Assembly (NCBI GenBank): GCA_048886685.1
Contig: JBHLKM010000019.1
Coordinates: 20,107 to 84,106, forward strand
Direction of reading: 5' to 3'
Source of the DNA: Candidatus Hodarchaeota archaeon
Lineage (GTDB): Archaea; Asgardarchaeota; Lokiarchaeia; Sigyniarchaeales; SOKP01
Length of the DNA stretch: 64,000 bases
The position numbers and the translations under genes are program-made. The notes below the pieces were generated by a model. That model was not told the DNA's origin, did no database searches, and saw only the letters and a program-made list of their open reading frames with translations. Every line of letters starts with the position of its first letter. Positions within the stretch are counted from its first letter, which is position 1. Positions 14,247 to 24,850 of the stretch are shown here, piece after piece.

Positions 14247-14720
14247 TCAAGGAATGATTATCGTGGGATCTTCCTTAATTCTATCCAAAACCAGTTGGGT
14301 TTTTACTTCTTCTACTTCAGGAAGGTTTCGAAGATTTTCAATAAGATCCATAGAATCTTCATGGTCTAAGCACTTAGCCATAATAAAGATTGGGTAATCA
14401 CCAGTTATGATATAAGCAAACTTTATTCTTTGCATCCTTTCAATTTCTTCCTTGATCTGCTCCAAAGGACGTCTTGAATTCACTCGAAGGGATGCCATTA
14501 CCATTTCTCTATAACCCAATTTACTACAATCTATTAGCGCGATGTATTTCTTAATTAATTCTCTTTCTAGCCTCTGGATACGTGATCTCACCGCAGTTTG
14601 ACTTTTATCGGTCCTATCTGCGATTTCTCTAATTGTTAATTTTGCATTTTCTTGAAGTAATTCAAGGATTTGTTTATCTGTACTGTCAATAGTTCCATTT
14701 GTTGAGTTAACTGCTACCAT
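14247..14720 (-). CDS. Lrp/AsnC family transcriptional regulator
   Basis: IDSTDKQILELLQENAK...EIA...S..AVRSRIQRLE HTH, and RAM domain ITGDYP. Confidence 0.92.
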   Translation of the reverse strand: MVAVNSTNGTIDSTDKQILELLQENAKLTIREIADRTDKSQTAVRSRIQRLERELIKKYIALIDCSKLGYREMVMASLRVNSRRPLEQIKEEIERMQRIKFAYIITGDYPIFIMAKCLDHEDSMDLIENLRNLPEVEEVKTQLVLDRIKEDPTIIIP

Positions 14721-14974
14721 TCTATAATACCTAACAAATATAATTTCTATTTTTTGTTCTTATTATAAATAATAAATTGCAAATTTATAATTTTTTATAC
14801 TAATCTTTTTGATTTATATAGTGATATTTGCTAAATAAACCTGTAGTTTATAGCTTAAAAAACTATGATTTAAATACTAGATAATATTTTTATTCTACAA
14901 TGAATGTCATCTATAGTAAAAAGTGACATTAGTAACAAAAAAAAAAATAAAAAAAACTAAAAAGGTTGAAAAAA

Positions 14975-15205
14975 ATGGCTGAATTAACATTAACATTTGA
15001 TTTTACAGGATTGAGATGTCCTATGCCGGTTTTAAAGACGAAAAAGGAATTAAAGAACTTAAATCCTGGTGATGTTATTGAGGTTATTGCTGATGACGTT
15101 GGAGCGAAAAAAGACATTCCAGCTATGTTAAATAAGACTGGGAATGAATTAATTGAACTCAGAGAAGACAACGGGAATTTAATTTTTGTAATCAAGAAGG
15201 CTTAA
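14975..15205 (+). CDS. tusA: TusA/SirA sulfur-carrier protein
   Basis: D.TGLRCPMPVL motif, V.ADD.GA..DIP. Confidence 0.92.
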   Translation: MAELTLTFDFTGLRCPMPVLKTKKELKNLNPGDVIEVIADDVGAKKDIPAMLNKTGNELIELREDNGNLIFVIKKA

Positions 15206-15234
15206 AGCATATAAATAGGAGTTTATTGAGCAGT

Positions 15235-15603
15235 ATGTCGAAATATGTTTTCTTTATTAGCACTGAACCATACAAGTACCAGGCTGTCGATTCATTAATA
15301 GAAATTGGTAAAGCAGCACTAAGAAAGGGGCATGAAATCATGGGTATATTTTTCTTTGGCACAGGAGTATATAATCTTAAAAAGGATATTAGCTGCGGAT
15401 CGTCTATTCGCAACATCCCAGAAAAGATTGAGAAATTTAGCAAGGAAAATAATATTCCAGTAGCAGGTTGTAGTACTTGGGTGAGTATAACAGGATTAAA
15501 AGAACCAGAATTCATTGAGGGAGCAACTGAAGAGGGATTAGGAGATTTTTCTAACTGGGCAATTGAAGCTGATAAATTATTAGTATTTGGAACAGGAGGG
15601 TAA
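15235..15603 (+). CDS. DsrE/TusD family sulfurtransferase
   Basis: EPY, AAL.KGH.I.GIFFFGTGV, active-site-position Cys (AGCST), GLG.F. Confidence 0.82.
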   Translation: MSKYVFFISTEPYKYQAVDSLIEIGKAALRKGHEIMGIFFFGTGVYNLKKDISCGSSIRNIPEKIEKFSKENNIPVAGCSTWVSITGLKEPEFIEGATEEGLGDFSNWAIEADKLLVFGTGG

Positions 15604-15607
15604 AATT

Positions 15608-15976
15608 ATGATAAATTCAGTAGTAGTAATAAGTGATCAATCACCTATAGGGAGAAATTCGGCAATCGAGGCAATTAGAATAGGCTCAGGATTTACTGCC
15701 CTTGGAGAGTATATTGACTGTAAAGTTGTATTGACTGGTGATGCGGTGTATTTATTTAATAAGTTTTGTAATCCTGAAGCAGTTGGGATGGATCCATTGA
15801 CCGAAGTATTAGAAATGGCTGATTTATCTGATTTAGAAGTGTATATTATTGAATCTGCATTAACCGAGGCCGGATTATCAAAAGACGACCTAATTGAATA
15901 TGAAAACCTGAAATTCATCGATTATGATGGTTTAACAGAATTAATAGCAGAAGCAGATACAACATTTAGATTTTAG
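15608..15976 (+). CDS. DsrF/TusC family protein
   Basis: SP.G...A.EA, V.LTGDAVY, SAL.E.GL, and C-terminal AD...RF. Confidence 0.78.
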   Translation: MINSVVVISDQSPIGRNSAIEAIRIGSGFTALGEYIDCKVVLTGDAVYLFNKFCNPEAVGMDPLTEVLEMADLSDLEVYIIESALTEAGLSKDDLIEYENLKFIDYDGLTELIAEADTTFRF

Positions 15977-15991
15977 AGGAGATGAATAAAA

Positions 15992-16333
15992 ATGCCAGAA
16001 AATCTTGAATTAGTATATTTGTTTGGATTTAGCGAGTTAACAGGTAGTCATTTGAGAAGATTACTCCCTATTTTAAAAAGTCAAATCAAAAAGAATACAA
16101 AACTTGGATTAGTCTTGATTCACGATGGAGTTATAGGCATAACAACGAAGGGAAAAATACCAAAAAAAATTGAAGAACTCCTTAGTTTAGACGTGAAGGT
16201 ATTTGCTATGAAGCCGGATATAATAGCACGCGGAATTGCGCAGGAGTACATTAACGATAAAATTAAAGCTATAGAATATGATGATCTTATAGATATAATT
16301 GATGCTACACCAAAAATTATATCATGGATGTAA
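15992..16333 (+). CDS. DsrH/TusB family protein
   Basis: LVLIHDGV, VFAM..D..ARGI, I.YDDL.D, ISW motifs. Confidence 0.82.
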   Translation: MPENLELVYLFGFSELTGSHLRRLLPILKSQIKKNTKLGLVLIHDGVIGITTKGKIPKKIEELLSLDVKVFAMKPDIIARGIAQEYINDKIKAIEYDDLIDIIDATPKIISWM

Positions 16334-16443
16334 TTAGAATCATAAAAATTAAAAAGTAAAAGATTTTTAAAAAAGTCTGGGTAAGACCAGGAAAATAATA
16401 AACAAAAAATAAAGGAAATTTCCTAAAAAAATAAAATAAGAAG

Positions 16444-16875
16444 GTGGTATATGTGGCAGAAAACGGAACAATAAATTTTATTGTAAAGGATAAATCATTC
16501 GAGAAATTCGCAATGATGATGATCCTTGGCACAACGGGAGACGCTATGGATATTAAAATGAATTTTTTCTTTACCTTTTGGGGTTTAGAACTTTTGAAAA
16601 AGGGTAAAAAACCAAAAGTTGCAGGCATGCCTTTTCCAATGAAAGGTATGGCAGCAAAGATGTTTACCAAAAGGTTGAAGAAGTTTGGAATTGAAGATCC
16701 ATGGGGTTTGATAAAAGAGGCTATTGATAATGGAAATATGAAGTTATATCCATGTGAAATGACCATGCAATTGATGGGAATTAAACATAAGGATATAATC
16801 GAGATTGCTGAAGAACCTGTTGGTGCTGCTACATTCTTAGAAATGAGTGATGGTGGAAGAATAGTTAGTTTATAA
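16444..16875 (+). CDS. DsrE2 (DrsE_2)-type sulfurtransferase
   Basis: FFFTFWGL, YPCEMTMQLMGI, VGAATFL. Confidence 0.85.
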   Translation: MVYVAENGTINFIVKDKSFEKFAMMMILGTTGDAMDIKMNFFFTFWGLELLKKGKKPKVAGMPFPMKGMAAKMFTKRLKKFGIEDPWGLIKEAIDNGNMKLYPCEMTMQLMGIKHKDIIEIAEEPVGAATFLEMSDGGRIVSL

Positions 16876-16927
16876 ATTTTAAACAAATTTTTTTTTTATT
16901 TTATATTTCAAAAAAGGTGATGATAAA

Positions 16928-17479
16928 ACGTCTGATGTAGAGGAACAAGCAAGGGAATATAAAACAGACGAAGATTTTGATAATGAATTTTTTAAAAATA
17001 TTGAAAGAAGGTCTAATATTTGGCAGTGCATCCAATGTGGAACTTGTACAGCAAGTTGCGAAAGTGGTAGATGGACTGCCCTAAAAACTCGATCTATAAT
17101 TAGAAAAGTTGTTTTAGGAGATTTATCAGTATTAAAAAATCCAGATATCTGGCTCTGTACTACATGTTATCAATGTTATGAACGATGTCCTCGTGATGTG
17201 AGACCTACAGATGTTATTATGGAGTTGCGTAATTATGCGACTAAATTAGGAAATATTTCTCCTAATCATCGAGCTGTTGTAGGTTATCTGAAAAATTTTG
17301 GACACGCAGTTCCAATAAATGATGAAGTAAAACAACGAAGAGTTAAATTAGGATTAGAAGAACTACCGCCTACTGCGTTTAAATTCAAGCAGGAGGGGGA
17401 TGATAAAGATTTAAAAAATATCGAAGAAAAAATGTTTGATTTACCTCCAGTTAAGGAGGAAAAAGAGGAAGAGGCGTAA
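16928..17479 (+). CDS. hdrC: Heterodisulfide reductase subunit C (183 aa; apparent ACG start)
   Basis: The frame of the 17198 ORF is open upstream and contains CIQCGTCTASC and IWLCTTCYQCYERCPR; AGGTGA RBS 7 nt before ACG. Confidence 0.88.
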   Translation, partial: TSDVEEQAREYKTDEDFDNEFFKNIERRSNIWQCIQCGTCTASCESGRWTALKTRSIIRKVVLGDLSVLKNPDIWLCTTCYQCYERCPRDVRPTDVIMELRNYATKLGNISPNHRAVVGYLKNFGHAVPINDEVKQRRVKLGLEELPPTAFKFKQEGDDKDLKNIEEKMFDLPPVKEEKEEEA

Positions 17480-17482
17480 AAA

Positions 17483-18400
17483 ATGTTAAAGGAAAATACA
17501 TTTGCTTTCTTTTTAGGATGTTTGATGCCAAATCGATATCCTGCAATTGAAAAATCAACGAAATTTGTTATGGAAAAATTAGGTTATGAACTCTTAGATA
17601 TGGAGAGAGCAACCTGTTGTCCAGCTCCAGGAGTATTTCGATCATTTAATAAGATTGATTGGATGGTTCTCGCTGCAAGAAACCTATGTATCGCAGAACA
17701 ATTGGATGCTGATATTCTAACAGTATGTAATGGTTGTTTTGGTACGCTTCAAGAAGTTAATAAACATTTGAAAGAAAATGAAGAGCATAGAAATATGGTT
17801 AATGAGAGATTGAAAGAAATTGGAGATTATGAATTTCAGGGAACTATTGATGTAAGACACGTTGCGGAAGTATTAGGATATGAAGTTGGGCCATGGGGAA
17901 TTGAAGATGTAATAGTAAGAAAAGTCAATGCACGAGTAGCAATTCATTATGGTTGTCATTTCTTAAAACCAACAAGAATAAGAGAAATTGAAAGCTCTGA
18001 GGGACCTACTATTATAGAAGAATTCGTAGAAGTATTAGGGATAGAATCCGTGAGATTTAAAGAACAGCTAACTTGCTGTGGTGCTGGCGGTGGAGTAAAA
18101 GCCTATGATGGAACAGCAAGTATGACTATTTTCGGTGAAAAAATGAAGAATATTGATGAGGTTAAACCTGATTTTATACTTGATATCTGTCCATTTTGTC
18201 ATTTACAATACGAGACAGGTCAAGATTATCTAAATAAAAATAAGAATTGTAATTATGATTATCCAGTAATTCACATCTCCCAACTTGTTGCCTATTGTAT
18301 GGGGATGGACCAAGAATTTATTGGTCTTCAGTATCAATTAATGGGCAGAGATTTTATTTTTGGGGGAGAAAAATTAGAAAAAGAGGAGGAGGTCGTTTAA
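17483..18400 (+). CDS. hdrB: Heterodisulfide reductase subunit B
   Basis: FLGC.MPNRYP, TCCPAPG, CNGC, HYGCH, CCGAGGG, CPFCHLQ (two CCG domains). Confidence 0.95.
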   Translation: MLKENTFAFFLGCLMPNRYPAIEKSTKFVMEKLGYELLDMERATCCPAPGVFRSFNKIDWMVLAARNLCIAEQLDADILTVCNGCFGTLQEVNKHLKENEEHRNMVNERLKEIGDYEFQGTIDVRHVAEVLGYEVGPWGIEDVIVRKVNARVAIHYGCHFLKPTRIREIESSEGPTIIEEFVEVLGIESVRFKEQLTCCGAGGGVKAYDGTASMTIFGEKMKNIDEVKPDFILDICPFCHLQYETGQDYLNKNKNCNYDYPVIHISQLVAYCMGMDQEFIGLQYQLMGRDFIFGGEKLEKEEEVV

Positions 18401-18401
18401 C

Positions 18402-20432
18402 TTGACTATAAAAGAAGAAAAAGTTAAAGAGACTGAACAATTAGGGGAAAAGGTTGAAACCGAAGAAAGCGAAGAGCCACGAATAGGTGTATTCGTGTGT
18501 CATTGTGGACATAATATTGCCGGAACTGTGGACGTTGCTAAAGTTGCGGAATATGCATCAACATTACCAAACGTAGTAAAAGCAGAGCATTATATGTTTA
18601 TGTGTTCCAAACCAGGAGTTCAAATGGTTAAAGATTCTATTGAAGAACTTGGAGTTAATAGAACTGTTGTTGCTTCATGCTCTAAAAATCAACATGGGAA
18701 AACTTTTGCGAGAGCAATTGAAGAAGTTGGATTGAACAAACATCGTCATCAACAGGTTAATGTGAGAGAGTACGATAGTTGGGTTCATCAAAAAGAAAAA
18801 GAGAAAGCAACTCAAAAGGCTATGAGACTTGTTGAAGCAGGAGTGAATCGATCAAGGAAATTGGAAGATGTCGAAACGAGGAGAATTCCAACGACTAAGG
18901 CGGCATTAGTTATCGGTGCAGGGATAGCTGGTTTGCGATCTGCCTACGATATGGCAGAATTAGGAATCCCAGTAGTTCTAGTAGAAAAAGAATCTACAAT
19001 AGGAGGTCATATGACACGTTTAAACAAAACATTCCCAACTTTAGAATGTCCACAGTGTTCCATCTCTCCACTTACAAATGGAGTTGCGAATCACCCACTA
19101 ATAGAGCTTTATACAAATGCTCAAATTAAAAGCGTTGAAGGTTCTTTAGGTAATTTCGAGGTTGAAATCGAGATAAAGCCTCGCTATGTGAAAGATAATT
19201 GTACTTCTTGCGGTGAATGTGCGGCACACTGCCCCGTAGAAGTACCAAGTGAATGGGATATGGAAATGTCGATGAGAAATGCGATTTACAAAGCTTATCC
19301 TCAGGCAATCCCCGCAACATATGTAAGAGATAAAAAGAATTGTATTGAGTGTAATACTTGTATTAATATTTGTCCTGTTCAAGCAGTTGATTTCTCTATG
19401 CAATCAGAGACTAAGACTGTAAAGGTTGGCTCAATAATCGTTGCGGCGGGATATGATGAGTATGATCCTACCGAAATTGAACCTTATCATTATGGACAAG
19501 AGGGTTTTGAAGATGTAATAACTCAGCTGAAACTAGAGAGAATGTTATCTCCAACTTCACTTACAAATAGTCAAGTACTTAGACCATCAGATGGTAAAAT
19601 TCCTAAAAGCGTTGTTATGATCCAATGTGTAGGAAGTAGAAACGACCAAGTTGGAAATAAATATTGTACGGGAGTATGCTGTAAGGTCGCTATTAAAAAT
19701 GCTAGAATCATAAAAGAAATGTATCCTCATACTGATGTATCAATATGTTATATTGATATAAGGACTCCAGGATTAAACTTTGAAGAATTGTATAAATCTG
19801 CTCAAGAAATTGGAGTTAGATTTATCCGTGGTAGACCATCAGAAATTGTAAAAAACCCAATATCAGGAGAGTTAAAAGTAATTGTTGAAGATACATTAAG
19901 TCAAACACCATTACAATTAAAAGCTGATTTAGTTGTACTTTCTGCTGCTATGGTTCCTCCTGAGGGAATTGGTCCACTTGGTTCTAAACTTCATGTACTA
20001 AGATCAAAAGAAGGATTCTTAAAAGAATTTCATATAAAAATGAATCCTACTCTAAGTAGTAAAGGAGGAATTTTCTTAGCTGGGGCTATACAAGGACCCA
20101 AAGACATTTCTGAAACTGTAGCTCATGCTGGAAATGCTGCCGCATTAGCAGCTGCTCCTTTAGTGAAAGGCTACATTGAAAAAGAGATGTTGGTTCCTTC
20201 AATAGATTATGATTTATGCGTTAACTGCGGTTTATGTAAAACTATCTGTGCTCCAGCTGCAATTGACATCGATGAGAATGGAATTCCTGCTATAAATGAG
20301 ATTGCTTGTAAGTCCTGTGGTATGTGTATGCCTGTATGTCCTACAGGAGCAATTCAATTAATAAATTTTAGTGATGATCAATTATTAGATGAAATAATCG
20401 CCGTATCTGGCGGAGGTGCTGTTTGCGAATGA
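18402..20432 (+). CDS. hdrA: Heterodisulfide reductase subunit A (Cys form)
   Basis: RIGVFVCHCG.NIAG, IGAGIAG, KTFPTLEC..C, IQCVGSR...YC...CC, inserted and C-terminal ferredoxin domains. Confidence 0.95.
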   Translation: MTIKEEKVKETEQLGEKVETEESEEPRIGVFVCHCGHNIAGTVDVAKVAEYASTLPNVVKAEHYMFMCSKPGVQMVKDSIEELGVNRTVVASCSKNQHGKTFARAIEEVGLNKHRHQQVNVREYDSWVHQKEKEKATQKAMRLVEAGVNRSRKLEDVETRRIPTTKAALVIGAGIAGLRSAYDMAELGIPVVLVEKESTIGGHMTRLNKTFPTLECPQCSISPLTNGVANHPLIELYTNAQIKSVEGSLGNFEVEIEIKPRYVKDNCTSCGECAAHCPVEVPSEWDMEMSMRNAIYKAYPQAIPATYVRDKKNCIECNTCINICPVQAVDFSMQSETKTVKVGSIIVAAGYDEYDPTEIEPYHYGQEGFEDVITQLKLERMLSPTSLTNSQVLRPSDGKIPKSVVMIQCVGSRNDQVGNKYCTGVCCKVAIKNARIIKEMYPHTDVSICYIDIRTPGLNFEELYKSAQEIGVRFIRGRPSEIVKNPISGELKVIVEDTLSQTPLQLKADLVVLSAAMVPPEGIGPLGSKLHVLRSKEGFLKEFHIKMNPTLSSKGGIFLAGAIQGPKDISETVAHAGNAAALAAAPLVKGYIEKEMLVPSIDYDLCVNCGLCKTICAPAAIDIDENGIPAINEIACKSCGMCMPVCPTGAIQLINFSDDQLLDEIIAVSGGGAVCE

Positions 20433-20881
20433 GCGAATGTGAAACTATTGATGAAGCTATTCAGGAGAAAATTCAAAATGTAGTAGTTTTTATGTGTAAT
20501 GAATGTGGTCAAGGTTCTGCTAACACTGCGGGAGTAGCTCGAATGGGTTATGATCCTGCTATAAGAATCATAAGAGTTCAATGTACAGGTCAAGTTGGAC
20601 CTATTCAAATAATGGATGCATTAAATAATGGTGCTGATGCAGTTGCGTGTGTTGGATGCTGCTTAGGAGCTTGTCATTTTTTCAATGGAAACATCTTATC
20701 GATGCATAGAATAAAACTGATGAAAAAGTTATTTAAGGAATTAGGTTATAGTGATCAATTTGTTAATCAATATACTTCTAGGGCTGCTGAAGGTGAAACT
20801 GCTGTAGGAGATTTTGAAGATATATTAGAAAGGTTATCAACAGCAATTAAAGAGGAGGGTACGATTAAAGATGGATGTTAA
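20429..20881 (+). CDS. mvhD: MvhD/FlpD-type [2Fe-2S] adaptor subunit
   Basis: F.CNEC....A..AG, IRVQCTG, GADAV...GC..G.CHF..GN; ATGA overlap with hdrA. Confidence 0.88.
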   Translation: MSECETIDEAIQEKIQNVVVFMCNECGQGSANTAGVARMGYDPAIRIIRVQCTGQVGPIQIMDALNNGADAVACVGCCLGACHFFNGNILSMHRIKLMKKLFKELGYSDQFVNQYTSRAAEGETAVGDFEDILERLSTAIKEEGTIKDGC

Positions 20882-22106
20882 AGTTTTTCAATTCAATGGT
20901 TGTAATAAATGTTTTAACGAATCATTATTGCTAAAATTAAGTTCAGATTTAAATGTTGAATACATTAAAGACCCTAAGACATGGAAAGAAGAAAAAATAG
21001 AAACAGCGGTTATAACAGGATATCTACTCCCAACTGATAGAGAAATGATCAATAAGATAAGATCTAATGCAAAGAAAGTTATAGCTTATGGTAGCTGTCC
21101 TGTTAGTGGTGGAGTTTATGCATTAGCAAACCAAAATGGATATGAAATAACTCCTTTGAAAGACTTGGGTGATAATGTAATTGAAATTGAAGGTTGTTTA
21201 GGCGAAATTGATGAGCTGAAATCAGTTATTAAAAATCTAGAGTTAACTAAACCTAGAAAATTATGTGATTTATGTACTCGTAGAGCTACATGTGATTACT
21301 TAGATAAAGTGAATCGTCAAATCGAGTTTAATGATGAGGACACTTGTTTTAATGACTTAGGTTTTCTTTGTAGCGGATTTGTTGCTCGAGAATGTAAAGA
21401 ACGCTGTATTGACTACAATACACCGTGTAGGGGATGTAAACAATTAGTTGAAAGGTCGGGAATCCGTATGCTTGGTATGTTTGGAACACTCATGGGAAAC
21501 ATTGAAGTTGCCACAGAACACTCAGTTAAAGGAGCAACAGATAAATTAGCTGATGAAGAGGATGATGTAACGAGAAGTTTACCAGATATTCTAGGAAATT
21601 TCTTCAGATTTACATTGACTACTTCAGGACTACCTAAAGGAAGAATTCCATCTTCTGGTACTTTATTAGAGGATTTATTTACTGGAAGATTAATTGAAGA
21701 ATTACCATTAATTACAGGGCTCTTAGGAGGAGATAAATCAATTTCACTTACCTTGAAAATAATTGAATCATATGAAAAAGCTAATCAAATTGAAATTAGC
21801 GAGCAAACTAGGAAATATCGAGAACAATTGCTAACTTTAGAAGAAAAATTACATGAAGCAATAGAAAAAGAAGATGCAGAACAATATAAAGAAATCACTG
21901 GAGAAATCCGTCAAATAGCTGGAAATATGAATTTGTCAAATGTGTTCTTTGGTGGATTCAAATCAAAAATAAATGATGATGATAATTTTGAAGATTATAA
22001 ACCCCACATTTTTGAAGTGGTTGAAGGAACTTATAAAAACGGTTCTGTAGAATATAGCATAGATTCAGATGGAATAATTAAAGAAATTAAAATAAGAGAG
22101 GGATAA
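20871..22106 (+). CDS. MvhG-like Fe-S subunit fused to a degenerate hydrogenase large-subunit relic
   Basis: GCNKC..S, AYGSC...GG, GC, LCDLC, CF...G.LC.G, C...C....PCRGC. The Cys-free C-terminal ~150 aa resembles MvhA segments. Confidence 0.75.
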   Translation: MDVKVFQFNGCNKCFNESLLLKLSSDLNVEYIKDPKTWKEEKIETAVITGYLLPTDREMINKIRSNAKKVIAYGSCPVSGGVYALANQNGYEITPLKDLGDNVIEIEGCLGEIDELKSVIKNLELTKPRKLCDLCTRRATCDYLDKVNRQIEFNDEDTCFNDLGFLCSGFVARECKERCIDYNTPCRGCKQLVERSGIRMLGMFGTLMGNIEVATEHSVKGATDKLADEEDDVTRSLPDILGNFFRFTLTTSGLPKGRIPSSGTLLEDLFTGRLIEELPLITGLLGGDKSISLTLKIIESYEKANQIEISEQTRKYREQLLTLEEKLHEAIEKEDAEQYKEITGEIRQIAGNMNLSNVFFGGFKSKINDDDNFEDYKPHIFEVVEGTYKNGSVEYSIDSDGIIKEIKIREG

Positions 22107-22108
22107 AC

Positions 22109-24580
22109 ATGAGTTTTGAATTACTAAAAAATGAAATTATCGATGCGGGTTTGTGTCAAGGATGTGGATTATGTGCTGGTTCATGTAAGCACATAGAAAT
22201 GGATATACTACGCCCAACATTAAAAGATTATTGTATTCTTGAAAGAGATGGAAAAGATTGTGGTAAATGCTATCAAGGTTGTCCACAAGTTATTCAGAAA
22301 AAATTCGAGCAAAGGCAACCAAAAGTGGTTTATTCATTAAGAAGTAAAAATCCAGAAATACTCGCAAAAGCGGCTAGTGGTGGAGTAGTCACAACAATAG
22401 CTAAGGAATTATTAGAAAAGGGAGAACTTGCCGAAATTGTGATGGTTCAAGACGTTGAAGAAAAACCTCAAGCTGAGATAGTTTCTGATCCAGATGAAGT
22501 TGTACAAAAAGCAGGTGTCGTTTATGGACGCTCAGGAGTCTTACAAAAGTTAGTAGATGTTGTTGGGGAAACTTTCGAACCGGTAGGAATTGTAGGTGTC
22601 CCATGTGAAATACGAGGTGCAGCTGAACTGGAAGAAGAAATGAATAGGGATATTCTGAAAATTGGATTATTTTGCAATTCCCATATGCGAACCGAGCAAA
22701 CTGATAAAGGATTGGTGTGTTCACCTTGTTGTAGTGGCTGTCCGTCAGGAGTAAATGCCCAAGGATATATTTCCTTAATAAGACAAGGAGAATACCGAGA
22801 AGCAGTAGATTTAATCCGAGAAAATAATCCACTTCCTTCTATATGCGGAAGGATTTGCACGAATGAATGTGAGCATGGATGTACTTTGATAGGAGATGAT
22901 CATCCCGTAGCAATCCGGGAATTAAAAAAGTTTGTTACCGAATGGGAAATTGAACAATCTAAGAAGATTGAGCCTAAATCTAAGATTAAATCAAAAAAGA
23001 ATGCAAAAAAGGTTGCAATTATTGGATCTGGACCCGCTGGATTAACAGCAGGATATTTTTTGAAGAGAATGGGATATGCACCAACTATATTCGAAAAGTC
23101 AGATCAGACAGGAGGCATGCTAAGATTCGGAGTGCCACAATTTAGATTACCTAATTATGTATTAGATTATGACGTAAATATGATTAAAAACTCTGGCGTT
23201 GAAATCATTCTTAATAAACCTTTAGGACCAGAAATGACTATTGATGACTTAAAAAATGATGGATTTGAAGCGATTTTCATAGCTACTGGTCAATATAAAC
23301 CTCGAACATTACATCTAGAAGGAGAAGATCTACCAAACGTACACGTGGCTATTACATTTCTTATGGATCGCAAGTATAGGTACTGGGAAAATAAAGAAGA
23401 ATTCAAGGGAAAAACAGTAGGAATAATTGGTGGAGGCCCAGTTGCAGTAGATGTTGCTCAAACTGCTCTCAGATTAGGCGCTGAAAAAATTCATCTTGTT
23501 GATATCATGTCTGAAGAACAACTTGAGTTAGTATTAAAAGAGATTCCTGAAAATGAATTTGAATTTATGGAGTATCACTTTACAACATCAACTTCAAAGA
23601 TTACTCAGAGCGAAGATGGTAAATTAGTGCTAAACAGTTATAAAGTTGAATGGTGGACTTCTGATGAAACAGGGAGAAAAGCAATGAATAAAGTTAAAGG
23701 GTCCGATTATGAAATTCCAATTGATTCCATTGTAATTGCGGTAGGTCAAGCTGTGGATTTTGATCAAATTGATATAGCTACAGATAATAAATTAGAAAAA
23801 GAGCGAAATAAAATCAAAGTGAATGAGGTTACTTTCGAAACAAGTATTCCAGGAGTATTTGCTGGGGGAGATATTATTAACAACTCGAAAGCCGTGGCAA
23901 TCGCGGCAATTGCACATGGAAAAGAAGCTGCAATCTCAATTGATAGGTATCTTAAAGGTGAGAGTTTAATAGAAGGTAGATATAAGCAAGATAAGATGTT
24001 TTTTAAAGGTCCTAAGAAACCGCCAAAAGATTATTCACCAAAACCAGAAACTTTAGAAGATGCTACTGAAGAAATCGCATGGAGTTTTGAAGAAATCGAT
24101 CAAATGTTTGATGAAGAGATGGCAATACAAGAAGCACGTAGGTGTTTGAGCTGTAATCATTTCTGCTCACATTGTCAAGATTTTCCTGCTATTTATTCTG
24201 ATTTAACAGCAGGAGAAGTAGGATCCCAGGAAGGATTTACAACTTTGGTAGTATGGACTGATAAAGGTAAAGAAATCATAGAGAAAGCAATTAAAAATGG
24301 ATTATTTGAAGAAGGAGAAGTAAACAAGGAAGAATTAAATAACGCGATAAATCTTAAATCTAAGCGAGAGCTTTTAACGTTTGAAAAAACTCCAAGACAA
24401 CGAGTATTAGATTACATTACGCTTCAAGGACCAACTACAATTAGTGATATGGCTAAAAAGTTAAATCTAGACTCTAAAAAAATACGATATGAAGCCCTTC
24501 GATTAACCCAATTAATGCAAGTTGAGATGAAGGTTGATCCAGGAATGCAAGAACCAATTTTTACTTTAATTTGTGAATAA
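22109..24580 (+). CDS. FrhB-type F420-binding subunit with inserted GltD/NfnB-like NAD(P)H flavoprotein and C-terminal wHTH
   Basis: CQGCGLC...C, ASGGVVT, VGVPCE, IGLFC; then CP......YI/NPLPSICGRIC, IGSGPAG, IGGG.VA.D, GVFAGGD, EARRCLSC; then CSHCQDF...SD...G.VGS.EGFTT. Confidence 0.88.
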   Translation: MSFELLKNEIIDAGLCQGCGLCAGSCKHIEMDILRPTLKDYCILERDGKDCGKCYQGCPQVIQKKFEQRQPKVVYSLRSKNPEILAKAASGGVVTTIAKELLEKGELAEIVMVQDVEEKPQAEIVSDPDEVVQKAGVVYGRSGVLQKLVDVVGETFEPVGIVGVPCEIRGAAELEEEMNRDILKIGLFCNSHMRTEQTDKGLVCSPCCSGCPSGVNAQGYISLIRQGEYREAVDLIRENNPLPSICGRICTNECEHGCTLIGDDHPVAIRELKKFVTEWEIEQSKKIEPKSKIKSKKNAKKVAIIGSGPAGLTAGYFLKRMGYAPTIFEKSDQTGGMLRFGVPQFRLPNYVLDYDVNMIKNSGVEIILNKPLGPEMTIDDLKNDGFEAIFIATGQYKPRTLHLEGEDLPNVHVAITFLMDRKYRYWENKEEFKGKTVGIIGGGPVAVDVAQTALRLGAEKIHLVDIMSEEQLELVLKEIPENEFEFMEYHFTTSTSKITQSEDGKLVLNSYKVEWWTSDETGRKAMNKVKGSDYEIPIDSIVIAVGQAVDFDQIDIATDNKLEKERNKIKVNEVTFETSIPGVFAGGDIINNSKAVAIAAIAHGKEAAISIDRYLKGESLIEGRYKQDKMFFKGPKKPPKDYSPKPETLEDATEEIAWSFEEIDQMFDEEMAIQEARRCLSCNHFCSHCQDFPAIYSDLTAGEVGSQEGFTTLVVWTDKGKEIIEKAIKNGLFEEGEVNKEELNNAINLKSKRELLTFEKTPRQRVLDYITLQGPTTISDMAKKLNLDSKKIRYEALRLTQLMQVEMKVDPGMQEPIFTLICE

Positions 24581-24613: not shown

Positions 24614-24850
24614 ATGAAATGCGATATGGAATTAAATGTTTGTGGCTCTGTATGCCCCGTACCAGCTTTAAAGACGAAAAAGCAACTTATGAAAATGAGA
24701 CCTGGCACAGTGTTAAAGGTAATAACAGACTACAAACCAGCAAGCGAATCTGTTCCACGCGATTTAGCTAAAACCAAGCATAGACATTTAGGAACAGAGT
24801 TCATAGAAGATGATGAGCAGTGGTATATCTATTTTGAAGCAGTGAAATAA
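24614..24850 (+). CDS. tusA: Second TusA/SirA sulfur-carrier protein
   Basis: L.VCGSVCPVPAL, L.VITDY.PA.ESVP. Confidence 0.88.
   Translation: MKCDMELNVCGSVCPVPALKTKKQLMKMRPGTVLKVITDYKPASESVPRDLAKTKHRHLGTEFIEDDEQWYIYFEAVK

Follow-up and report, generated by a model that had tools for sequence, protein, structure and literature searches.

Flavoprotein cassettes embedded in other proteins are already known from HdrA, StnC and NfnA, as are input subunits of Hdr complexes with an FrhB fold (ElpB, FdhB) and Hdr complexes fed by reduced nicotinamide adenine dinucleotide (NADH), such as Flx-Hdr. In the Type III HdrA, HdrL and HdrA-NfnB proteins, a GltD/NfnB-like insertion of ~500 residues has been proposed to give Hdr direct access to NAD(P)H (PMC12054007, PMC9012536; PMC2702500 for HdrL). 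The GltD-like domain of StnC holds a lysine-ligated cluster and a non-bifurcating input flavin adenine dinucleotide (FAD) (PMC10482914), and the proximal cluster of NfnA is bound by C108, C147, C151 and K170 (PMC11829005). In the FrhB family, the iron-sulfur (Fe-S) cluster ligands of the M. marburgensis protein are C104, C134, C192 and C195 (PMC3591093), and a lid (FrhB 128-188), composed of a helix and three strands, is one of the walls of the channel for coenzyme F420 (PMC3930138). The gene analyzed here lies at positions 22109..24580 (+ strand) of a 64,000-nucleotide stretch of a Candidatus Hodarchaeota archaeon genome (assembly GCA_048886685.1, contig JBHLKM010000019.1; the window), and encodes an FrhB protein (the query) that is interrupted by a complete cassette of the StnC/NfnA type. 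A full-text search, the reach of which leaves out most subscription journals and with them the 2021 review of HdrA by Appel et al., identified no publication that describes either an FrhB with an internal cassette or the subfamily of lid-less Asgard FrhB proteins discussed below.

The gene is a single reading frame of 823 residues, and its layout, established from Pfam matches and the open reading frame, is ferredoxin, N-terminal half of FrhB, 479-residue cassette, C-terminal half of FrhB and winged helix, all on the + strand. The 2x[4Fe-4S] ferredoxin (residues 1-62; 22109..22294; C16, 19, 22, 26, 42, 51, 54 and 58), whose eight cysteines are invariant in 123 aligned sequences, aligns with the N-termini of Fsr and FwdI and is common to the query, FpoF, Fsr and FwdI. 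The N-half of FrhB (residues 63-189; 22295..22675), delimited by PF04422 (E 6e-16), positions 3-49 of PF04432 and alignment column counts, contains the FAD pyrophosphate loop (G91-G92), an altered adenine loop (residues 136-141) and the cluster ligands C166 and C189. It is followed by a stretch of 17 residues replacing the FrhB lid (190-206; 22676..22726), as determined from the alignment and from a model of the insert-free orthologue, by the cassette itself (207-685; 22727..24163), identified by structure match and alignment, and by the C-half of FrhB (686-752; 24164..24364), which provides the ligands C686 and C689 and an acidic residue, E703, within the G-x-V-G-S loop. The C-terminal winged helix (760-823; 24386..24577) is present in all forms of the gene, and the orthologous region 283-346 matches winged-helix folds in structure comparison (Z 10-12, root-mean-square deviation [rmsd] 1-2). 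Neither the ferredoxin nor the winged helix had been part of the first-pass annotation of the window, which was made from the sequence alone and described an FrhB with a flavoprotein inserted inside it.

That description of a domain insertion, as opposed to an end-to-end fusion, is borne out by the Pfam matches, by structure comparison and by the existence of an insert-free orthologue. All the families it had expected were found: FrhB_N at residues 74-145, FrhB_C in two pieces and, between the two halves, Fer4_20 (191-283) and Pyr_redox_2 (300-604). When the pieces were scanned separately, FrhB_C positions 3-49 corresponded to residues 158-200, positions 50-94 were absent, and positions 95-149 resumed from residue 686 (E 4e-12), so that the segment after the insert is indeed FrhB_C. 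On the nucleotide level, IGLFC ends at 22675, the closing cysteine pair of the cassette spans 24131-24154 and the FrhB CxxCxDF begins at 24164. C166, C189, C686 and C689 are the counterparts of the FrhB cluster ligands, with two on each side of the insert, and are invariant in the 123 orthologues. In an AlphaFold2 model of the query, one and the same FrhB chain, 9r51_B, covers both FrhB halves (Z 21.5, rmsd 2.9, 206 aligned residues, model residues 65..753), which also superpose on ElpB (8rvu_E, Z 20.5) and on FwdI; a Foldseek search with re-scoring returned cassette relatives only, the FrhB structures surfacing only in a wider structure search. Chance, an assembly chimera and an end-to-end fusion are ruled out by the 63 genomes with a full-length frame, by two closed genomes and by the refolded split domain. 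The guanine-plus-cytosine content of the insert (0.36) is similar to that of the host (0.33-0.38), and hence there is no sign of recent transfer.

The insertion site can be located through orthologues that lack the cassette. An insert-free orthologue of 345-362 residues occupies the same hdrCBA-mvhD-mvhG' operon (where mvhG' denotes an mvhG-like gene) in seven genomes of a family outside the class of the window's genome, and the named members of this insert-free group are Thorarchaeota (Thorarchaeia). All 31 of the 31 insert-free proteins have 17 residues between the GLFC cysteine and CxxCxDF, and in the query 17 residues precede C207, the first cysteine of the cassette; the insert therefore comprises residues 207-685 and sits immediately N-terminal to the host CxxC. 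At the lid site, 56-62 residues are found in intact FrhB homologues. A model of the Thorarchaeia protein (predicted local distance difference test, pLDDT, 90) presents a short beta-hairpin at this site, matches FrhB-family structures with Z 21-32 and ends in a winged helix. With intact FrhB homologues as the root, a tree of the host domain only separates the Thorarchaeia proteins from a sister group of all Loki proteins (each supported at 100/97 or better), and the shorter forms from Loki genomes are nested within the insert-bearing clade (99/95), although the approximately unbiased test against a single insert-less clade is borderline (p 0.049). Forms of 380 residues (in genomes G006, G262 and G254) were considered as the ancestral empty site and rejected, given their nested position and their retention of cassette scraps corresponding to query residues 257-284 and 660-685, which identify them as later deletions. 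The cassette-deleted forms (L016:10204-11346, L035:8887-10029, L036:1955-3154) present two cysteines before and two after the scar, and possibly still hold one extra cluster; at all three loci, tusA and a second hdrC-hdrB pair lie 3' of the gene, and G254 also harbors a full-length copy on another contig. Reduction goes further in Ca. Harpocratesius repetitus (L027:8865-9293), where the orthologue is only 142 residues long and consists of ferredoxin and winged helix, the rest of the operon being intact. In five other orthologues the eight-residue FrhB FAD loop is deleted and all cluster ligands and a YRR nucleotide site are kept. This sub-lineage with a YRR cassette comprises L021:7366-9810, P0343 and P0345-P0347, and a frameshifted copy of the same type occurs in G039 in tandem with a gene of the DIM type, named after the strand end discussed below. 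Taken together, alignments and trees give the order of events as lid loss, a single insertion and then losses.

The first-pass annotation had placed a GltD/NfnB-like module at ~22718-24153. A flavoprotein module is present, within bounds of 22727-24163, but it is not NfnB/GltD proper. The cassette aligns continuously with StnC 102-566 and NfnA 102-567, closing RCxxC included, and its similarity to the NADPH-oxidising domain of these two proteins covers the full cassette (E 1e-85 to 1e-74; structure Z 33-35). In NfnB the RCxxC segment is N-terminal, and residues 10-42 of 4YLF align to the end of the insert. On this alignment the cassette is a circularly permuted NfnB/GltD of the StnC/NfnA type. 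It shares with NfnB/GltD proper (4YLF, 5JCA, 6S6S; Z 31-35) the core FAD and NAD(P) domains and two clusters, but lacks the N-terminal RCxxC and the glutamate at the proximal cluster, and no NfnA or GltB partner is encoded in the operon. With StnC (Sporomusa ovata, 8OH5) and NfnA (9BOV, 9N5U; Bfu-type NfnABC) it shares the module order, the Cys3Lys proximal cluster and a conserved arginine (R346, StnC R239), which is invariant in the aligned orthologues, and there too the module is embedded within a larger Fe-S protein. The host in those systems is NuoG/FdhF and the partners are StnAB (HydBC-like) or NfnBC, whereas here the host is FrhB and the partner Hdr; the StnABC/NfnABC partners are absent from the operon, which contains hdrCBA, mvhD and mvhG' instead.

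Alignment to NfnA predicts C211, C250, C254 and K273 as ligands of the proximal cluster, and C207, C258, C679 and C682 as those of the distal cluster. All eight are invariant, including K273 (22925..22927; 123/123), the equivalent of StnC/NfnA K170, a position occupied by glutamate in bifurcating NfnB. At the 3' junction (C679-x2-C682-x3-C686-x2-C689; 24143..24175), where all four cysteines are invariant, the distal cluster of the cassette would abut the FrhB cluster, with three residues between C682 and C686 compared to one or two in most other cassette-bearing proteins. A three-residue spacing links both clusters of 2x[4Fe-4S] ferredoxins, and the two clusters should therefore be in direct contact, within electron-transfer range. 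The two ends of the permuted cassette would meet on one cluster, easing insertion, and this may explain why such a cassette is found in HdrA, HdrD-like proteins, NfnA/StnC and FrhB alike.

The LVDIM end of the second Rossmann strand, from which the first-pass annotation had suggested NAD(H) rather than NADP(H), was located at residues 463-467 (23495..23509), aligned with the YRR strand of StnC, NfnA and NfnB. Where StnC and NfnA have YRR at the NADPH site, the query has D465-I466 in place of this phosphate-binding motif; most members of the family have DIM, and YRR is found only in early-branching orthologues. Position 465 is Asp or Glu in 121 of the 123 aligned orthologues. The earliest orthologues to branch in the cassette tree are those with YRR, and all acidic forms fall into one clade (support of 100 in the Shimodaira-Hasegawa-like approximate likelihood ratio test, SH-aLRT), which includes an HdrD-like paralogue of the same genome; the next relative is the YRR-type P0128, of equal length and with a similar N-terminal junction. 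The change from YRR to an acidic residue is hence a derived trait, and transfer of the cassette from one paralogue to another has taken place. An acidic residue at the end of the second Rossmann strand is the usual NAD signature, and the cassette likely uses NAD(H), and ancestrally NADP(H). The preference proposed in the first-pass annotation is thereby plausible and strengthened by the near-invariance of the acid and the earlier branching of YRR forms, with a retained GxGxxA motif pointing the other way. The HdrD-like paralogue (Fer4 and CCG domains, 920 residues; G000 C11 113315-116077, L024:7310-10072) carries its cassette inside the first CCG domain. This cassette is 54% identical to that of the query and shares the acidic strand end; the gene precedes an aldehyde:ferredoxin oxidoreductase-like gene, and homologous frames of 917-929 codons occur across the genus.

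The reading that we favor, and hold to be probably correct, is that the protein is the port by which NAD(H), and ancestrally NADP(H), connects to an HdrABC-MvhD-MvhG' complex that has no hydrogenase, with the FrhB Fe-S cluster as part of the wire. NADH, or NADPH in the ancestral YRR forms, would hand a hydride to the cassette FAD, from which single electrons would pass through the Lys-ligated proximal cluster, the distal cluster and the FrhB cluster to the two clusters of the N-terminal ferredoxin, and onward through MvhG' and MvhD to the bifurcating FAD of HdrA. HdrA would then reduce ferredoxin together with a disulfide or persulfide at HdrBC, or operate in the reverse direction, the persulfide substrate possibly residing on the co-encoded TusA/DsrE carriers. 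The FrhB fold would act mainly as Fe-S wire and scaffold, its own flavin site being optional and not serving F420. The closest functional parallel is FlxABCD-HdrABC (cited in PMC12054007, PMC7015854), in which NADH likewise feeds HdrABC through MvhD-like and Fe-S subunits without a hydrogenase. In agreement with the definition of Flx-Hdr, the operon combines hdrABC and an mvhD-like gene without a hydrogenase large subunit. FlxA, however, is an FNR-type flavoprotein, and no FNR-type domain was found among the Pfam matches of the operon proteins; the cassette is a single-chain module of the glutathione-reductase type (Pyr_redox_2/Fer4_20) within FrhB, and MvhG' replaces the FlxC-type wiring. It is rather more probable than otherwise that the protein works like FlxAB, but it is not a member of Flx-Hdr. 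In Type III HdrA the insert splits the ferredoxin domain of HdrA itself and has been proposed to shut ferredoxin out, whereas here HdrA is plain and the insert sits in the electron-input subunit, an arrangement compatible with continued bifurcation to ferredoxin. Another Hdr input subunit with an FrhB fold is ElpB. The query shares fold, N-terminal ferredoxin, four-cysteine cluster and FAD loop with the FrhB/FdhB/FpoF/Fsr family, ElpB of Elp-Hdr (8RVU) and FwdI (8RJA), with Z of 20-21 for the split query. It differs from the FrhB family in the missing lid, the altered flavin-pocket motifs, the winged-helix tail, the cassette and the lack of dependence on detectable F420 synthesis genes.

Several observations count against an NAD(H) port that uses FrhB mainly as a wire. 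The model of the query has a mean pLDDT of 72 and is of low confidence in its Fe-S regions, a GG-x-x-T FAD loop is still present in the query, and the F420 synthesis genes cofG, cofD and cofE in its genome. Conservation of the host domain (0.81-0.83) is similar to that of the cassette (0.81-0.92). The nucleotide motif is mixed, with A446 of GxGxxA kept in 123 of 123 sequences and the Asn of GGGN replaced by Pro, Ala or Ser. Finally, the cassette is missing from the operon in Thorarchaeia and in at least three Loki genomes, and in Ca. Harpocratesius ferredoxin and winged helix are all that is left of the protein; the persistence of the operon in these lineages indicates that the cassette is not essential to the operon and that the port is exchangeable. 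A complex prediction for MvhG' and a cassette-deleted orthologue (score 0.00) weighs neither way.

The alternative that survives best is that both flavins are active but the FAD of the lid-less FrhB does not act on F420; its substrate would be, for example, a small redox protein, free flavin, polysulfide or a persulfide bound to a carrier, and the cassette would just supply NAD(H) electrons. Thorarchaeia without a cassette or detectable cofG/cofD retain a lid-less FrhB whose FAD motifs are intact, so that some other role is needed there. Sulfur-carrier genes flank the operon, and the FrhB fold has uses unrelated to F420 (HCAR, 5dqr, Z 22.5). Nonetheless, the whole FrhB core is lost in Ca. Harpocratesius while the operon stays, no catalytic cysteine pair was identified near the host flavin, and the five orthologues without FAD loop but with all cluster ligands indicate that the host flavin is dispensable there and the Fe-S wire is not. 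We therefore regard this alternative as unlikely. A more elaborate form of it, an Hdr system specific to Asgard archaea, appears just as improbable: lid loss would have released the FrhB fold from F420, the exposed FAD would act on TusA/DsrE persulfides or another non-F420 substrate, and a cassette acquired later, of switchable NADPH/NADH specificity, would feed both the host flavin and HdrA, making the protein a three-flavin NAD(H)/sulfur/ferredoxin hub in cultured Lokiarchaeia.

Slightly less probable still is the proposal of the first-pass annotation that two flavin sites link F420 and NAD(H) to Hdr, F420 and NAD(H) exchanging hydride at the FrhB FAD and at the cassette, respectively. The query retains GG-x-x-T of the FAD pyrophosphate loop (xxGG-x-x-T), in which G91 and G92 are present in 122 of 123 sequences, as well as the four cluster cysteines and the backbone of the G-x-V-G-S loop, and its genome encodes, in addition to the cof genes, twelve intact FrhB_C domains. 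Proteins in which such a module is fused end to end to an intact FrhB also exist, making the chemistry plausible in principle. Against this, the lid domain that forms the F420 access channel is absent, with 17 residues instead of 56-62 and Pfam FrhB_C positions 50-94 missing. The C-x-E-x-F motif and the Lys of the G-T-K-Y adenine loop are gone in the 123 aligned sequences, the Tyr of the latter being kept and a new invariant Arg141 appearing (Thorarchaeia mostly have GTRY), and the G-x-V-G-S loop carries Glu or Asp in 123 of 123 (Phe in Thorarchaeia), where the F420 cleft of Fsr is positively charged (PMC10229431). The gene is moreover kept where F420 synthesis genes are not detected: cofG was found in 115 of the 132 genomes of the window's family (f1) but in 0 of 14 genomes of family f2, which includes the cultured Lokiarchaeia, and in 0 of 7 Thorarchaeia with the lid-less orthologue, and cofD was not found in MK-D1, L. 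ossiferum or the seven Thorarchaeia carriers. MK-D1 and L. ossiferum keep the gene whole, and no cofG, cofD or high-scoring intact FrhB_C was found in either genome, although uptake of F420 from partner methanogens may supply genomes without detected cof genes. Because the lid was lost before the insertion, the gene persists without detected cofG/cofD and the FAD loop has been deleted in one sub-lineage, a link between F420 and NAD(H) through this protein is, as far as sequences can tell, unlikely. The further idea of the first-pass annotation, that the insert had replaced the F420 site, is roughly right in effect but not as history, the insert-free Thorarchaeia proteins having already been reduced to 17 residues.

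Two end-to-end fusions were observed separately. A 916-codon frame (G000 C8 159421-162171) joins a winged helix-like N-terminus, ferredoxin, intact FrhB and a true NfnB with N-terminal RCxxC, Glu ligand and YRR, directly 3' of an NfnA-like gene; it is a better candidate than the query for an F420-linked Nfn transhydrogenase. The other, P0138 (ENA ERZ27247845; 855 residues), has the reverse order, with permuted cassette, ferredoxin and FrhB with a full-length lid region.

A third alternative, to which we assign marginally less weight than to the double port, is that the DIM-type cassette does not prefer NAD(H), and either still uses NADP(H) or binds no pyridine nucleotide and relays electrons by flavin and Fe-S to another partner. 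The invariant A446 is in line with this, as GxGxxA has been treated as an NADP-type form (PMC12054007), and so are the replacement of the GGGN Asn, the remodelled helix after the strand and the deletion of the cassette in one lineage. Opposing it, an acid followed by a hydrophobic residue at the strand end is the classic NAD signature, the acid has a single origin and is retained, either as Asp or as Glu, by two families and by the HdrD-like paralogue, and no variation is seen in the Rossmann glycines or in the GQ and GD motifs. A role as a redox-sensing DNA-binding regulator, its winged helix reading Fe-S and NAD state, instead of a catalytic Hdr subunit, is very improbable, for although the winged helix is found in every form, even that of 142 residues, and the basic R793 and R798 are invariant in Loki forms, the corresponding helix is not basic in Thorarchaeia, the operon already has an Lrp regulator and the full catalytic motifs are conserved.

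The operon is preceded by a divergent Lrp/AsnC regulator (14247..14720, - strand), which adjoins it in most relatives examined; all other genes are on the + strand. It opens with tusA, dsrE, dsrF, dsrH and dsrE2 (14966..16875; Pfam TusA, DsrE, DsrH and DrsE_2 above cut-off), followed by hdrC (16928..17479). Upstream of the Fe-S motifs of hdrC there is no ATG, GTG or TTG, and ACG is a possible start; within 16915-17197, AGGTGA lies shortly 5' of an in-frame ACG at 16928. Next come hdrB (17483..18400; TIGR03288 above cut-off) and hdrA (18402..20432), of the short type without insert. HdrA (676 residues) aligns without gaps to 5ODC, its E379 and K432 falling on E356 and K409 of 5ODC HdrA, the flavin-site residues of bifurcating HdrA. 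After mvhD (20423..20881; PF02662 E 2e-31) lies mvhG' (20871..22106), which encodes 411 residues and is not followed by mvhA; its product has 13 cysteines, all in the first 200 residues, and then a cysteine-free tail of 210 residues, the end of which resembles, by eye, the start of a NiFe large subunit. Directly 3' of the FrhB gene is a second tusA (24614..24850; PF01206 E 2e-18). mvhA is absent from the operon, and the NiFe large subunits of the genome are on other contigs; the genome also contains many hdrA, hdrB, mvhD and frhB paralogues. Gene order is conserved in the relatives fetched, and the FrhB gene lies directly 3' of mvhG' in every flanked locus examined except the tandem second copy in G039, the locus of G035 being unflanked. 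A Sigma-70 promoter scan gave results at chance level, with a consensus ill-suited to archaea.

An N-terminal match within an open frame of 809-839 codons was found in 63 of 398 Asgard genomes, all of which except G112 belong to the order of the window's genome, and every full-length orthologue that was fetched and aligned has an identical domain layout. The copy in G112, a genome of a distant family, lies on a 10-kb contig (L044) and is 88-92% identical to that of the window, and is probably a misbinned contig; Thor, Heimdall, Hod and Odin labels on NCBI proteins of 78-85% identity may also stem from misbinning. Named homologues of the query are Promethearchaeota (Lokiarchaeia), and the gene is present in the closed genomes of two cultured organisms, P. 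syntrophicum MK-D1 (QEE15325.1) and Ca. L. ossiferum (UYP45715.1). One orthologue (L020:10302-12845, G026) is broken by a single in-frame TAA within the cassette. One RNA run contained the MK-D1 locus as a flat 20-kb contig, as DNA in the library could also give. Independent insertions were sought among 1.84 billion representatives, and in the best 150 FrhB occurred only in the family itself and in the fusion P0138.

The orthologues form a natural series in domain evolution, from lid loss and insertion at an exact site through an apparent switch from NADP to NAD and loss of the host flavin loop to cassette deletion and reduction to ferredoxin and winged helix. They also imply that an FrhB annotation in Asgard genomes need not signify F420 metabolism; UniRef designates these orthologues 'formate dehydrogenase (coenzyme F420)'. 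For MK-D1, the described outlets for H2 and formate are MvhADG-HdrABC and formate dehydrogenase (PMC7015854). If the proposed function is correct, the operon would be a direct link of NAD(H) to bifurcating Hdr and sulfur carriers in two cultured species, and would bear on the balance of NADH and ferredoxin in fermentative Lokiarchaeia.

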